Shown piece by piece: positions 1,974-11,898 of a stretch of 64,000 nt of DNA (the first letter of the stretch is position 1; each line of letters opens with the position of its first letter). A program made the position numbers and the translations under genes. The notes beneath the pieces are model-generated. The model saw only the letters and a program-made list of their open reading frames with translations. It had not been told where the DNA came from and made no database searches. The DNA lies in NCBI RefSeq assembly GCF_036971445.1, contig NC_091475.1, positions 157,418,001-157,482,000 on the forward strand. The letters are read 5' to 3'. This stretch comes from Narcine bancroftii. Taxonomy: Eukaryota.

Positions 1974-2266
1974 TGTGGTGGTACACCACAGGCCTACTGC
2001 AGGGGGAAACCTCTGTACCTGTAGGAGTGTAAGGGGACAGGACAAAACCTGACTGGCTGTCAATCAGTCGGCCTGAATGGATCAAGCCCCACCCGGTCAG
2101 GTGTCAATCACCCTCTGGGATATAAGCCTGTGCCGGCATCCTGAGGCCTCACTCAGAATTGCTGCAGCCCACAGCCAGCCTGGCTCTGTGGAAGTCTTTG
2201 TGGATTAAAGCCTGTTGTATAGTCTTTACCTTGTCTGTGTCTGATTTTGTCTATCAGCACACCACA
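1974..2266 (+). repeat. 5' LTR (TATA-like gatataag ~2119, ATTAAA 2204-2209)
   Basis: Direct repeat of 6455-6739; begins tgtgg, ends ccaca. Confidence 0.92.
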
Positions 2267-2297
2267 ATTTAATCCACAAAATTTTCCCACAGCTGCC

Positions 2298-3050
2298 ATG
2301 GAAAAACTCCTGTGCGTAGGGAGCCTTGAAGTCGACTCACACCACCCAGAAGCCCAGACACGCTTCGAGATCTGGCAGCACGCGGTCGAAGCAATCATCG
2401 AGTCACACGAGGGCGACGTCCTGGACTCCGATTGGAAGAGGTTGGTCCTACTCTGGTCAAAGCTGGGTCCCTGCACCTTCCAGGTAACCAAAGGATGCTC
2501 CACGTACAAGAGTGCAATGGATACTCTCGAGAACTTGTACAAGCCCCCCATGAATGTGGTCTGTGCAAGGTATCTCCTCAATACCCTAGCCCGGCAACCC
2601 AGGGAGATGGCTGAGTCTTACCTAGGATACTTGCAAGAGTTGGCCCGACCATGTCTGGCTGAACCCAGGGTAGGTGTAGAGGAGGTCGAGAGGCTGATCC
2701 GCGACGCTTTTGTCCGAGGGCCACACTCGAGGGCCATCCGGCAGAAGCTGCTGGAAGACAATATCTATGCCCTAATCAGGACTGTGGAAGTGGTCCAAAC
2801 CCTGGAAACAGCAGCCCTTCACATCAAAGCCTTTGATTACAGGTTCCCCCAGGCTCCCTCATGGCCCTCTCACACTGTAGCTGCAGCCCCAGGCTGAGCT
2901 GGGGAGGAGAACATCACTGTGGTAGGCGCCCGGTGCCCCTGTTAGTACTGTGAGTCCTGGTGTGGGTCAGATTGACGATCGCACCAAAACTGCCCAGCTA
3001 GGAACCAGTATTGTTCCTGATGCGGCAAGAAAGGCCAAAAGTGTGCCTCT
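2298..3050 (+). pseudogene. gag: Gypsy gag (capsid plus degenerate zinc knuckles)
   Basis: ORF 2247..2897, likely start MEKLL at 2298; includes LIRDAFVRG..IRQKLLE; after the stop, CPARNQYCS.CGKKG knuckle remnant. Confidence 0.85.
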
Positions 3051-3654
3051 CTAAACCTGCCGGCAGCTCAGCGGCCCTCTGACCTCCCCACCTCCCCCGC
3101 GGACCCCCCCATGTGCATGTGCTGGGTGGCGCCATTGTCCCTGCGATGACTTCCCCCTTCCTCGACTTCGACCGCGCAACATCCGGCCCCGCCAGCGACC
3201 ATCACAGCATGTGCCCCAAGTATCTGCACCAGCCCCCGCCGCTCACTGAGAACTACAGCGATGTCACTTCCAGCTGACATAATGACGTCACTGCTGCCGG
3301 CCGTGATGAAGTCACTTCCCCTGGTGCAGCGGACACGGCTGAGGAAGGAGGCCAGCCATGCAATGGCCCCCCACGTGTCACTGCCATCTTGGGCCAGGCA
3401 GCACCCAACATGGAGGGCCCCTGGAATGTTGAGAACAACGTGGTCAATATGGGCATTGACCAGACCACCCAACCAACGCTCCCCTCACCTCTGGATACTG
3501 CATGCTGCACCTCACGACCGATGTTGATGTAGTCAACATGGGCAATGACCAGGCCACCCTATCGACACTCTCCATCCCTCCGGATAGCGATGACTCCGAG
3601 ATGGTCCTGGCCGCCACCACGCTGACCAGGGACATCCCCCATGATCTCGAGCGC

Positions 3655-6114
3655 TCGATGATGGATGTGTGAGTCAACGGGCAGGTAACAAAGTGCCTGT
3701 TGGACAGTGGCAGCACCGAGAGCTTCATTCACTCGAGTGTGGCCCACTCCCTAAGGTTAAAGGTCCACCCCACCACCTGCTCGATCACCCTCGCCGCCAA
3801 GGATAAGACTGTTGGTACCCTCAGGCACTGCTCGGTTGATTTAACGGTGAGAGGGGAGACTTACACAGGATTCAGGCTCCTGGTCATGCCCAAACTCTGC
3901 ACACCACTCCTCCTGGGCCAGGATTTCCAGTGCCACCTGTAGAATGTCACCCTTGCCTTTGGGGGGCCCCAACCTCCACTCACATTGCACAGCACGCCAA
4001 CCTACCAGCCCCGGCCAACCTGCAGCCTCTCCACACTGTGCATCACCCCATCAGTGCTTTTTCCACATCTTGCGCTAGGCTGCAAGCCGATCGCCCCCAG
4101 AAGTAGGCACTATTGCACTGCAGACAGGCACTTCATCAAGGCAGAGGTTCGGCGACTCCTGGCGGAAGGTGTTATAGAGCCCAGTAATGGCCCTTGGAGA
4201 GCCCAAGTCCTGGTGGTCAAAGGGGGAAGTAAGCTGAGGATGGTCGTGGATCACAGCCAGACCATTAATTGATACACCCAGCTGGATGCCTACCCCCTGT
4301 CGAGGATCGCCGACATGGTCAATGAGATAGCGCACTACTAGGTTTTCTCCACAATTGACCTGAAATAGGCGTATCACCAAATCCCTATCCACCAGAAGGA
4401 CAAGCCTACACCGCCTTTGAGGCGGACGGGTGCCTGTACCAGTTCCGCCGGGTTCCTTTTAGGGTCACGAATAGGGTCTCCATCTTCCAGTGGAAGATGG
4501 ATCACATGGTAGACCGGCACAAGTTGAAGGTGACGTTCCCAAATCTGGATAACGTCACTATCAGCGTATTCAGCACCACCCGCTTTGCTATTCTGGGGTA
4601 CATCGTGGCTCATGGAGTTGTCGGCCCAGATCTGGAAAGGATGCGCCCATTAATGGAGTTACCCCTCCCCCCCACACTAAAGGCCCTCCGCAGGTGCCTG
4701 GGTCTGTTCCCTTATTACTCGCAGTGGGTCCATCACTTCTCGGACAAGTTCCCCCACTGGCCCAAGCCACAACTTTTCCCCTCCCACCTGAGGTGCAGGC
4801 AGCCTTCACCTGCATCAGGCAAGACATCGCGGATGCCACAATGCAGGCTGTGGATGAGGACTTCCCCCTTCCAGGTAGAGAGTGATGCCTCTGAGGTGGC
4901 CCTCACTTCTACCCTCAACCAAGAGGGCTGCCCCATTGCCTTCTTCTCCAGGACCCTCCACGGCTCCGAGCTAGGGCACTCTGCCATTGGAAAGGAGGCC
5001 CAGGTGATTGTGGAAGCGGTCCGCCACTGGTGCCACTACCTGGCCAGCAGGAGATTCATACTCCTCACAGACCAGCAGGCCGTGGCGTTCATGTTTAACA
5101 CTACCCACAAGAGCAAGATCAAGAACGACAAGATCCTGCACTGGAGAGTCGAGCTGGCAACCTACAGCTATGACATTAAGTACCGCCCTGGGAAGTTTAA
5201 TGACTCCTCTGATGCCCTCTCTCGTACCTGCGCATCTATGCATGACGACAGGTTGCAGGGATTGCATGAGTCCCTCTGCCATCTGGGCGTCACCCGGTTG
5301 TACCATTTCGTTAAGTCCCAAAATCTGCCTTACATCGTCAGGGACATGACCGAGGCCTGTTAGGTCTGTGCAGAGTGTAAACCCCGTTTTTTCCGCACCC
5401 CAGGCCCACGTTGTAAAGGCTACTCAGCCTTTTGAACGTCTCAGCATGGACTTCAAACAGTCCATGCCTTCCACGAACCGAAACGTCTACTTTCTCATGG
5501 TAGTGGACGAGTACTCGTGCTTCCCTTTCGCCATCCCTTGTCTGGACACCTCCATGGCCACCGTCATCAGGGCCTTGGCAGATTTTCACCGGGGGTCTAG
5601 TTTCATGAGTGACGAGCTGCGCCAGTACCTGATGGCGAGGGGCATCGCGACCAGTTGCACGACAAGCTATAACCCGAGAGGCAACGGGCAAGTGGAACGT
5701 GAGGATGGGGTGGTCTGGAATGCCGTCCTCCTGGCTCTCAGGTCAAAAGGATGGGCCATCGAGTACTGGCAGGACGCCCTGCCCGAGGCGCTCCATGCCA
5801 TTCGGTCACTGCTATGCACAGCTACTAACGAGACCCCTCACGAACGTCTTTTCTCATTCCCCAGGAGGTTGGCAACTGGAATGCCACTTCCAGCATGGCT
5901 CACGTCCCCGGGACCGGTGCTTCTGCGTAAGCATGTACAGTCACACAAGGCCGAAGCCCTGGTAGAGCAGGCTTTCCTCCTTCATGCAAACCATAACTAC
6001 GCTTATGTTGGGTTTGGCAGTGGCAGAGAGGACACTGTTTCAACCAGGGACCTGGCACCAGCAGGAGCACCCACCACACCACGCCACCCTCCAACCAGGA
6101 TGACACTGATCTAG
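3655..6114 (+). pseudogene. pol: Gypsy pol (protease, RT, RNase H, integrase), many stops and frameshifts
   Basis: LLDSGSTESF protease; PWRAQVLVV/RMVVDHSQTIN/LDAYPL RT; VESDASEVAL..TDQQAV RNase H; PFERLSMDFK..YNPRGNGQVER..PGPVLLRKHV integrase. Confidence 0.92.
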
Positions 6115-6454
6115 GATGATACATCTCCGTCCCCAGACAACTATGGGGCACACAGGGCCTCCTTGACTACCAGGGACCTGCTTCAGACTTAGGAGATGAA
6201 CCCACCTCCCACCCATCCAATACGACCCGCATTCGTCGACCCCGGCCCCCCTGGCCACCCCTCCGCGCGGCACCACACCAGCCACATACGCCCCTGCTGC
6301 CAGCCACCCCACTTCCCCTCTGACCAGTGACCAGGAGCCATTCCTACGACAGTCACAGAGACCCCGGTGGCCGCTGAATCATCTCAACTGTAAATATAGT
6401 GCGATTCCTTGTTACTGTCCCCCACTCCGGGATAATTTTAAAGAAGGGGGTGAA

Positions 6455-6739
6455 TGTAGAGGTACAACACTGGCCTACTGCAGGGGGAAACCTCTGTACC
6501 TGCAGGAGTGTAAGGACAACACCTGAATGGCTGTCAATCAGTTGGCCTGAATGGATCAAGCCCCACCCAGTCGGGTGTCAATCACCCTCCAGGATATAAG
6601 CCTGCGCCGGCCTCCCGAGGCCTCACTCAGAGTTACTGCAGCCACAGCCAGCTTGTCTCTGTGGAAGTCTTTGTGGATTAAAGCCTGTTGTACAGTCTTT
6701 ACCTTGTGTGTGTCTGATTCTGTCTAACAGCACACCACA
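6455..6739 (+). repeat. 3' LTR
   Basis: Follows the polypurine tract; direct repeat of 1974-2266. Confidence 0.92.
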
Positions 6740-7242
6740 GAAGGCTACAAACTTTTGACTGTCTCCAGAGTGATGTGACAAAAGATAAAGTCAAAAGGAC
6801 AAGGAATTTTATGAAAGTGAATTGAAAGTCAAGTGTCTTTGTGGTGAAGTTACCTGTTTATTGCCAGAGTAATGTCTGAGACTCTGCTTGAGAACAATCT
6901 ATACAAGCTATATGATAAAATATCTTGTAACTTCAGTCATTGCTGCAGGCTTTTAAATAGCATTCACTAAACCTTTGTAACAGATTTTAAAAATAAATCT
7001 GGGTAAAAATAATGCCTGCCATTGAAACACTGCAAAACGATCCTTTGTAGAGTTCTAGATATCAACTGAACACAAAAATGTGATTTGTTCTTTCTCTGGT
7101 TTGTTTTCTGGCTTGCAGACTGCTTTTTTTTTCCTGTACCTTTGCTAGTTATTTGTGCTGTAGTGTGATTGAGAATTTCTGTGAGAATGAAATACAAAAA
7201 TGACAGTTGCTCTAAAGTGCACTCAAATCGCCATCAGTGATT

Positions 7243-9369: not shown

Positions 9370-9690
9370 CTAGATCAGATCAGATCCTATACTATTTATT
9401 GTCATGTAATAAAGCAGAAATAGTAACATTGCACGAAAATGCCTTTCTTATGACAAAGATTTTCCATTAGCATTGCCAAGTGCCCCTTACAGTCAGAGAA
9501 AGAGAAGCAAGAGAGTATCCTTAGAGTCACTGAGTGTCTGTGGATTCACCTCCAGGGCTCTTGCAGCCTGTGCCACCGCACAAGATTCCAGTTCAAACCC
9601 TAGCCCATATCCAAACCATTGACACGATAAGAAAGCCTTCAGCACCCAACATTCTTCGGGAGCCCTTCTTGGCCTCAGCATCCTCTTGAA
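9370..9690 (-). repeat. Unclassified retroposon 3' region (tail (tctga)n plus AATAAA on minus strand)
   Basis: agatcagatcagatc..tttattgtcatgtaataa..agagaagcaagagag; similar copy at 63228-63365. Confidence 0.45.
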
Positions 9691-9694
9691 TCCC

Positions 9695-11898
9695 AGTTGT
9701 TACGAGAGTGGCGAACACATTGGACCTTGAGTACACGAACATATTCTGACGCATATTGGGTGGAGCCCTGTCCCTACCTCGAATACTCAGACCACATCTC
9801 TGTAATGTTAATCCCTGCATACAGACTGCTCATGAGATGCTACAGACCAGTCCTGAAGCAGGTTAAAAGCTGGTCAGTGGGGACCATTCACGCACTTCAA
9901 GACTGTTTTGAGCTAACCAACTGGCACGTGTTCAAGGAAGCAGCAACCACTGGTGAATGTATAAACCTGGAGGAGTATATGGCAACAGTGATCAGCTAGG
10001 TTAGTAAGTGTAGTGACAACATCACTGTGCCCAAGTCCATCTCTACTCTCTCTCATCAGAAGCCATGGATGATGGAGGTCTGGGTGCTGCTCAGGAAATG
10101 AGATATGGCCTTCAGAGTGGGGGACAAGGCAGCCATAATGATGGCAAGAGCCAAGCTATCTAAGGCCATCAGAGGGGCAAAGCATGTGCAGGCCCAATGC
10201 ATTCACTGTTAATTCCTGGACAGCAAGGATGCATGTGGAGGGGGATCCAGGACTTCACTAATCATATGACCACACCATTTGCAGGTGCTGGTAATGCCTT
10301 CCTCCCAGATGAACTCAATGATTTCTACACGTGGTTTGAGGCACAAAACGATGTGGTGGCAAAGAAGACTACCCCTCCTCCAAGTGATCAGGTGCTGTGT
10401 CTTACAGTGGGCAATGTTAAGAGAGAACTAGACAAGGTCAACCTACAGAAAGTTGCTGTCCCGCATAACCTTCCCGGCAGAGAGCTCAGGGATTGTGCGG
10501 CTCAGCTAGCAGATGTTCTCACTGACATTTTTAATATCTCTCTGAGAAACACAGTGGTCCCAATGTGCTTCAAAGCCACCATCATTGTATCTGTGCTAAA
10601 GAAGTCATATGTGTTTACCGTCTTGCCACATTCATATCCATCATCATGAAATGCTTCGAGAGGCTCATCATGGGCCACATCAAGCATCTGCTCACTGGAC
10701 CCCCTGCAGTTTGCATATTGAGCCAACAGCTCCATGGACAATGTTATCGCCACCGCCCTTCATCTAGTCCTCACCCACCTTAGGAAAACAAAGACTTGTA
10801 TGTTCGAATGCTGTTTACTGACTTCATTTTGGCATTCAACATAATCATACCTCTGTACCTGATAAGGAAGTTGACTCTGCTGGTTCAAAACACCTCCTTC
10901 TGCAATTGGATTCTCGACTTTCTGATGGGGAGACCACAGTCAGTCTGGATAGGAAATGGCACCTCCAAGACCATCAAACTGAGCACAGGGGGGCCCCTCA
11001 GGGCTGCGTGCTCAGCCCACAGCTGTTTACTCTGCTGACCTATGATTGTGCAGCCAAGCACAGCTCGAAGCACATCATCAAGTTCATTAATGACATGACA
11101 ATGGTGGGCCTTGTCAGTAAGAACGAAGAGGGAACATATAGAGACTAAGCACAGACACTAATGAACTGGTGCAGAGCAAACAACCTGTATAATGTTTTTT
11201 TTAAAAAAAAATAGATGATTGTTGACTTCAGGAGGTCCTGGGGAGATCATGGTCCCCTGACCATTGACGGCTATACCATTGAGGTTGTCAAGATTATCAA
11301 GTTCCTCAGAGTGCTCCTGGCAGAGAATCTCACCTGGTCCTTTAATGCCAACTCCATAGCCAAGAAAGCCCAGCAGCTTTTCTACTACCTGTGAAGGCTG
11401 GAGAAAGACCACCTCCCACTCTCCATCCTCACTACATTCTACAGAGCAACTGCATCACCACCTGATTTGGAAGTTGTACCACCTCAGACTGCAAGACACT
11501 GCAGAGGATAGTGAACCTCTTTTTAGCATGAAGGACATCTACTACTCTCGATGCAGGTGGAAAGCAATCAATATTGTGAAAGACTCCATACATCTCGCAT
11601 GTAAACTGTTTTCCTTTCTGCTACCTTGGTGTAAGATATCAAAGGACTCAGGGCCCTTATGTCCAGAGTGGGGAAACTACATTTTCCCCAAGCCATCAGG
11701 CTCCTGAACTCCCAGTATAGATATGAATAGTGTGCCATGGACTTTGTATTTACATCTTAATACTTTAATATTATAATGTGTTAACTGCTTTCCTAACTTG
11801 CATCTAATTCGTTTCTCCTTGGTTCTGGAGAAGCGGTATCTCATCCTATCACGTGAGCATGGTATGAACAATAAATAAAGTTGGCTTGACTTGACTTG
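9695..11898 (+). mobile_element. Rex1/Babar LINE, 5'-truncated, decayed
   Basis: ORF fragments [73 protein letters not shown]; tail aataaa..(cttga)n. Confidence 0.9.

Follow-up and report, generated by a model that had tools for sequence, protein, structure and literature searches.

How does a Gypsy retrotransposon start copying its RNA into DNA when no tRNA-type primer site follows its 5' LTR? This question is raised by an element at 1974-6739 of the window, the whole stretch of 64,000 nucleotides of Narcine bancroftii DNA that was analyzed. The element is an old, decayed Gypsy copy, and all of its features lie on the forward strand. Its 5' LTR (TG...CA, 293 nt, 1974-2266) and its 3' LTR (6455-6739) are 92% identical, and the copy is flanked by AAAGG (1969-1973) and GAAGG (6740-6744), a target-site duplication matching at four of five positions. 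The gag-PR-RT-RH-IN coding region (2298-6114) has no chromodomain and is interrupted by stops and frameshifts, and a polypurine tract, recognized from its sequence, lies at 6440-6454. The TG...CA LTRs, the polypurine tract, the target-site duplication and the PR-RT-RH-IN order are those of Ty3/Gypsy elements, and the best solved relative in the alignment is Ty3 Gag-Pol. A gag search with the window copy gave no match. Elsewhere in the window, positions 1-220 and 9631-11450 hold fragments resembling LINE remnants (a C-terminal zinc-finger-like piece and RT-like frames).

There is no TGG within 25 nt past the 5' LTR, in agreement with the preliminary description. After the terminal CA come a single A (2267) and then TTTAATCCACAAA (2268-2280), which is the exact reverse complement of TTTGTGGATTAAA (2197-2209), an arm within the LTR whose final six bases are the ATTAAA poly(A) signal. 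This 13/13 pairing, the starting point of the earlier proposal, is confirmed, and a 13-nt match between leader and LTR is reached in one of 5000 dinucleotide shuffles. In two-LTR copies the stem starts 1 nt past the LTR end. Folding from RNA starts between 2140 and 2186 predicts 11 of the 13 pairs with probabilities of 0.8-1.0, and gives 0.64 and 0.41 to the two innermost. The window's family (family A) has 1112 genomic occurrences of its normal LTR-leader junction. Of its 30 best-scoring copies, 25 retain the complete stem of 13 pairs if G-U is included, and the other five keep 11-12. The low variation of the arm among these 30 copies (~1% versus 4-7%) was discarded as evidence, since the arms are free of CpG and the copies are top matches. 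An extension of the stem from CTGTGG to CCACAG had also been claimed. It appears in the predicted fold of the window copy, where the remaining leader up to the gag ATG (2281-2300, with the ATG at 2298) would pair imperfectly with 2181-2196, but across families the outer extensions rise only weakly above shuffled controls (17/26, p=0.058), and most family copies have CCACGG, with a G-U pair, in place of CCACAG.

Priming by a tRNA was rejected: TGG is absent, and the post-LTR site matches the host tRNAs over 5 nt at most, in a comparison with 22 distinct genes (30 loci) that samples a small part of the host repertoire. A self-cleaving ribozyme as the cutter was also dropped, as nothing in Rfam matched the window between 1900 and 2400 and ribozyme cleavage leaves a cyclic-phosphate end, which would not prime.

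The strongest argument for self-priming comes from other families, in which the site varies and always matches its own LTR. A perfect leader-LTR stem of 11-18 bp is present in 22 of 31 loci from metagenomes or MAGs that hold the gag start and at least 150 nt upstream. In the other nine a perfect stem of at least 11 bp is absent, and five of these (L135, L140, L148, L161, and L168) show none. For comparison between families, 26 representatives were chosen by eye (8 from the same genome and 18 from elsewhere; those five loci, near-duplicates and degraded copies were excluded), with the LTR end set at the last CA-N-TT before the ATG. Within these hand-picked representatives, the 13-mer lying 1 nt past the LTR pairs with its own LTR at 12.6 of 13 positions on average, and at 12 or more in 23 of 26. 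The 650 cross-family pairs reach a mean of 9.2/13, and three of them reach 13/13. The family's own LTR is the best or tied partner in 24 of the 26. Comparison of 12 disjoint pairs of representatives, some of them without support as sisters, shows compensation in 37 of 44 differing columns, a count biased in favour because the arm was located by complementarity. LTR and leader thus show compensated, family-specific pairing at a fixed position and, together with the lack of a match to the 22 host tRNA genes compared, this supports the self-priming interpretation first put forward in the preliminary description. It is established for retroviruses that the primer determines where an LTR ends on its right side. 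A binding site that differs between families while matching the LTR of its own family therefore requires a primer derived from the element, and we hold self-priming as such to be very probable.

The arm sits 23-67 nt upstream of the LTR end in the 26 representatives. It ends in AAA in 25 of them, and RCC comes next in 22 (GCC at 2210-2212 in the window copy). AATAAA or ATTAAA is found in 17 arms, others carrying for example GTTAAA, TTTAAA, or GGTAAA, and the nine arms without AATAAA or ATTAAA still keep the stem and its position. Because the hexamer is present in only these 17, the proposed coupling of priming to poly(A) suppression is not obligatory, and the constant feature is AAA|RCC.

Where the arm lies within the RNA depends on the position of the transcription start, which had been placed near 2150. 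This fits a TATAA at 2121 (the TATA-like box, 2121-2125) and an initiator-like A at 2151, which precede the arm end by 89 and 59 nt, respectively. Counted from the arm end, TATA is found at -84 to -89 in six and the initiator at -52 to -59 in five of the eight same-genome representatives, window included (-89 and -59), and motifs at such spacing are mostly not found in the 18 outside representatives. A search of the genome for A-tails yielded three loci. One of them, L461, is a LINE-made retrocopy from the young sister family C of the same genome, with a 17-bp duplication, an extra G before A141, and a terminal A-run that begins ~16 nt past AATAAA. An extra 5' G is expected from copying of a cap, and this single retrocopy, in a sister family, maps the start: the cap is at LTR position 141, an initiator ~32 nt past a TATA-like box, and the arm end is at 192, 52 nt away. 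An arm lying 45-60 nt inside the transcript, as had been estimated, is therefore supported in family C, and the 59-nt offset predicted for the window's family rests on the same spacing of TATA and initiator. The other two loci, L462 and L463, belong to the window's family and turn into A-runs 15 nt past ATTAAA, making 2224 the likely poly(A) site and end of R. With A-tails 15-16 nt downstream in three genomic copies, the hexamer (ATTAAA or AATAAA) does act like the poly(A) signal it was taken for. The mapped start and the A-tails imply that R spans from ~52-59 nt upstream of the arm end to ~15 nt past it, and thus place the arm in the interior of R, with a hexamer that is functional in polyadenylation. 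Contigs from four runs presumed to be RNA cover L220, a family C copy whose LTRs are 99.2% identical, from end to end, with no starts, ends, or tails; no sequencing run containing the element is on record as RNA.

We propose that the element likely primes its minus-strand DNA with its own capped 5' RNA fragment of ~52-59 nt, cut after the arm. In the window copy the RNA would start at about 2151, and the arm would pair with the primer-binding site in cis across a 58-nt loop. A single cut at AAA|GCC (2209/2210) would leave a capped 59-nt primer (2151-2209) on its binding site with the 3'-OH in place, and the same cut would create the new 5' end of the template. A 3' end right after the A-run, as the preliminary description had imagined it, fits the fixed inner end of the stem. 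Purely by analogy with Tf1, the cut may be made by the element's own RNase H. Strong-stop DNA would then end at the new template 5' end, as in the inverted-U5 copies described below, and the first strand transfer to the 3' end would go through the ~15 nt of remaining R. Plus-strand synthesis would meet no modified base in such a primer and could run on to the cap (the stop-then-jump copies), or else the plus strand could fold back on its own arm (the palindromic solo copies). Read-through of an unmodified primer would explain why mis-copied insertions are so many. As a possible side role, the stem may cover the 5' poly(A) hexamer in the 17 of 26 families that carry one; the 3' LTR holds its own copy of the arm (6670-6682), with no primer-binding site downstream to serve as partner.

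The genome preserves aberrant copies that can be read as fossils of reverse transcription. In L233, for example, the leader runs on into inverted LTR sequence from upstream of the arm. Junctions made of the LTR end, an A, and the inverted arm and upstream LTR occur 53 times in family A, 276 times in family B, and 296 times in family C, while control patterns give 0; since the patterns needed ~22 nt of copy, shorter primer copies are invisible in these counts. Altogether 50 (A), 70 (B), and 90 (C) junction loci were examined; the exact-junction walk worked for the young family only, and the counts for A and B were obtained by gapped extension.

In the inverted-U5 copies, the LTR runs to the arm and is followed by an inverted U5 and then by the interior. 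Of 55 such loci, 42 end no more than 11 nt from the arm end, which in the window corresponds to the GCC at 2210-2212, and none ends 10 nt or less from the start site; many of the ends are 4-11 nt inside the arm, further than a clean cut would allow. The point at which inverted-patch LTRs resume (19/20 at the cut, by eye) was discarded as evidence for the cut owing to microhomology. The distribution of ends bears on whether the primer is the 5' fragment in cis or another piece of element RNA, either a trimmed 3' copy of R or the cap-to-poly(A) RNA of a solo LTR acting in trans on an uncut 5' end. Such a primer is available in principle, because the arm is also in the 3' LTR and L461 attests to a short, R-only, capped and polyadenylated RNA, and the junction sequence would be identical whichever copy primes. 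However, an uncut template predicts strong-stop ends at the cap, where none of the 55 is found, and the 5' arm is 58 nt from the binding site and folds with it, whereas the 3' copy is 4.4 kb off. We therefore consider a primer of this origin improbable.

The cis fragment reading is also addressed by the stop-then-jump copies, whose inverted stretch of upstream LTR breaks off and jumps into the interior of the element. In family C they make up 13 of the 90 examined loci, with 11 distinct junctions, and all stop between -6 and +14 of LTR position 141; a fourteenth locus, L410, stops at +10. Family B has four, at -24, -3, +14, and +18 of the predicted start. Family A has none among its 50 loci, and L263 of this family stops at LTR position 179, near the predicted 178. 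Two family C loci that enter non-element DNA stop at 118 and 80. These stops speak to the length of the primer, which might instead be of Tf1 size, 11-15 nt, if the RNA were cut on both sides of the arm or if a second start lay at the arm. Tf1 uses 11 nt, according to the part of PMC7175516 consulted, the perfect stem is just 11-18 bp long, two ray families have a second initiator-like motif 18-19 nt upstream of the arm end, and the cap-stopping copies could stem from a second RNA. Against so short a primer, the stops cluster at a start 52 nt upstream, a partial test given that the patterns needed ~22 nt of copy, and we regard the short primer as decidedly unlikely.

The long capped primer that we prefer has its own difficulties. 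Five loci (L262, L308, L364, L435, and L447) pass through U3 into the interior, which tells us that template switches to a second RNA do happen, and the cap-stopping copies could have arisen when plus-strand DNA primed on another RNA molecule that was still uncut. A DNA hairpin centered on the initiator in families B and C could bias the stops as well. This second-RNA route, the hairpin, the inverted-U5 ends lying inside the arm, and the ~22-nt limit of the patterns are what keeps our confidence in the capped fragment at likely.

That the aberrant copies arose during reverse transcription is indicated by two further observations. Palindromic solo insertions (the LTR, an A, and the inverted LTR up to the arm) carry perfect 5-bp duplications in 13 of 17 cases, and hence integrase inserted folded-back cDNA. 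The aberrant share of counted junctions is 19% in the young family C versus 4.5% in the older family A, the opposite of a slow chromosomal build-up, in a comparison where the search patterns differ between families and palindromes may vanish with age. Together, the duplications and the higher share in the young family point to an origin during reverse transcription. A third alternative would leave priming to a host RNA, give the stem no role but to mask the 5' poly(A) signal or the gag start, and attribute the aberrant copies to DNA-level switching at the inverted repeat. In its favor, the hexamer does function in polyadenylation, the HIV-1 polyA hairpin controls the use of AAUAAA (PMC2645353, in the part consulted), and inversions between arms exist (L058/L221). 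We nevertheless regard it as very unlikely: the nine arms that lack AATAAA and ATTAAA keep stem and position, the host primer would have to differ from family to family, no tRNA among the 22 distinct genes compared matches over more than 5 nt, palindromic solos have their 5-bp duplications, LTRs with an inverted U5 patch past the arm have the leader and primer-binding site beside them in 0/20, and aberrant junctions are commoner in the younger family.

The lineage to which the element belongs is widespread, with integrase homologues named from rays, catsharks, a prawn, a sea anemone, a tunicate, a crinoid, and a nematode. One electric-ray protein has a gag start that matches the genome at 98-100% in at least 150 places, many in long open frames. 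Among 40 polyproteins, a Chromo or SH3_Tf2-1 domain is found in none and an RNase H domain in all, the fish controls carrying both Chromo and SH3_Tf2-1. An RT-RH tree places the lineage on its own branch (100/99), away from the 10 chromovirus-type fish proteins included. Its RT is 32% identical to fish chromodomain elements and, at about the same level, 29% identical to two Gmr1-like pieces. Judged by these sequences, the lineage lies outside the sampled chromoviruses; the tree, unrooted and with three groups only, does not prove an independent origin. The element would thus work like Tf1 in its self-priming, yet the features examined place it outside the Tf1/sushi group: it has no chromodomain, its RT-RH does not fall within the chromoviruses, and its primer, with the cap mapped 52 nt upstream of the arm end in family C, would not be the first ~11 nt of the RNA. 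A Repbase group named Smaug may have come up in connection with self-priming. Searches of viral contigs gave no relative, and an Atlas search gave generic gag clusters only. Bacterial MAG records L171-L178 contain this animal-type retrotransposon, some with LTRs, and are probably contaminated by host DNA. The same genome also harbors decayed Gmr1-like Gypsy elements with integrase before RT, together with chromovirus-type remnants (L213-L216, L218, L219 and L211, L212, L217).

Several known systems resemble this one. In the parts of the sources consulted, Tf1/Tf2 and Tj1 of fission yeasts and the Tf1/sushi elements likewise have no tRNA primer-binding site, their site pairs with their own 5' LTR RNA, and a cut past the paired stretch would free the primer (PMC7175516; PMC4600332; bioRxiv 10.1101/2022.12.06.519325). 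Tf1 RNase H cuts between bases 11 and 12 (PMC7175516, in part). The Tf1 primer is the first 11 nt of the RNA, whereas here the arm ends 52 nt past the cap (family C), near the end of R, and usually in the poly(A) hexamer. The chromodomain and SH3_Tf2-1 found in the Tf1/sushi group are seen in 0/40 here. Of the three duplexes of the Tf1 "pretzel," the central one is predicted here (mean 11.1/13 pairs), a post-cut hairpin is predicted in some families, and the outer extension is the weak one described above. For the plant elements Tcn1 (Gypsy) and TAR/Houba (Copia), sequence-predicted complementarity to the LTR starts 0-5 nt past the 5' LTR, as it does here; they belong to other lineages, and the part of the article consulted gives neither a primer length nor an overlap with the poly(A) signal (PMC6317226). 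The HIV-1 polyA hairpin also covers AAUAAA (PMC2645353, in part), but it lies within R at both ends and goes with a tRNA primer, while here the partner is the primer-binding site and the pairing is restricted to the 5' end.

In the portions of the literature covered, self-priming is on record for Tf1/sushi, Tcn1, and plant TAR/Houba, and priming is unexplained for Skipper, GalEa, and the bivalve TRIMs. This literature comprises parts of PMC6317226, PMC3601003, PMC5006619, PMC2836005, PMC2864245, bioRxiv 10.1101/2022.12.06.519325, PMC13524379, PMC6934838, PMC4600332, PMC6238403, PMC11042837, and PMC7175516. Within these parts we found no self-priming or long primer in an animal Gypsy element outside the chromoviruses and no earlier mention of the fossil mapping of primer ends; Repbase, GyDB, Butler et al. 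(2001), and the Levin papers fall outside this scope. The portions of PMC5753468 and PMC2774666 seen hold nothing relevant to self-priming, and the motif was not found in five of the six supplements of PMC6238403. The pairing of leader and LTR itself may already be on record. A broader proposition, to which we give slightly less than even credence, is that an animal-wide Gypsy lineage evolved self-priming apart from Tf1/sushi, with a capped primer of 50-60 nt ending in the hexamer, a stem that shields the 5' poly(A) signal, and a long unmodified primer that turns up to about one fifth of the counted LTR-end junctions aberrant, so that both primer ends are recorded in the genome.

In the portions of the literature covered, tested self-priming rests on yeast Tf1 and its 11-nt primer. 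If the mechanism proposed here is true, self-priming extends to a large animal lineage outside the chromoviruses and has a different geometry there, with a long capped primer, ~5 times the length of the yeast one, cut near the end of R and often at the poly(A) signal. Control exerted by the supply of tRNAs or by their fragments would not reach such elements, and they would be overlooked by annotation software that demands a tRNA primer-binding site. The mis-copied insertions, in addition, make it possible to read primer ends in an assembly alone, and they give exact coordinates for RNA ends.

Some of these insertions are of interest in their own right. Three family C loci (L317, L337, and L386) share a jump from the start-site region to the interior at ~664-674, where there is a 10-nt microhomology, and this is either a hot spot or one amplified deletion variant. 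Inverted segments are seen in the 5' LTRs of L058/L221 and L060/L222; in L058 the U5 is flipped between two arms and the 3' LTR is normal, probably a DNA-level event. Two hairpin-derived insertions, L326 and L408, each have one end at a TG inside the LTR (positions 164 and 162). The 5-bp duplication of L326 is perfect, which suggests that integrase can use internal ends. Finally, the palindromic junction of family B is repeated in tandem at a 278-bp spacing (L300-L304 and L428, from G000:C1:468290247 onward, and G000:C9:30112841-30114257), apparently a small satellite born from an aberrant cDNA.
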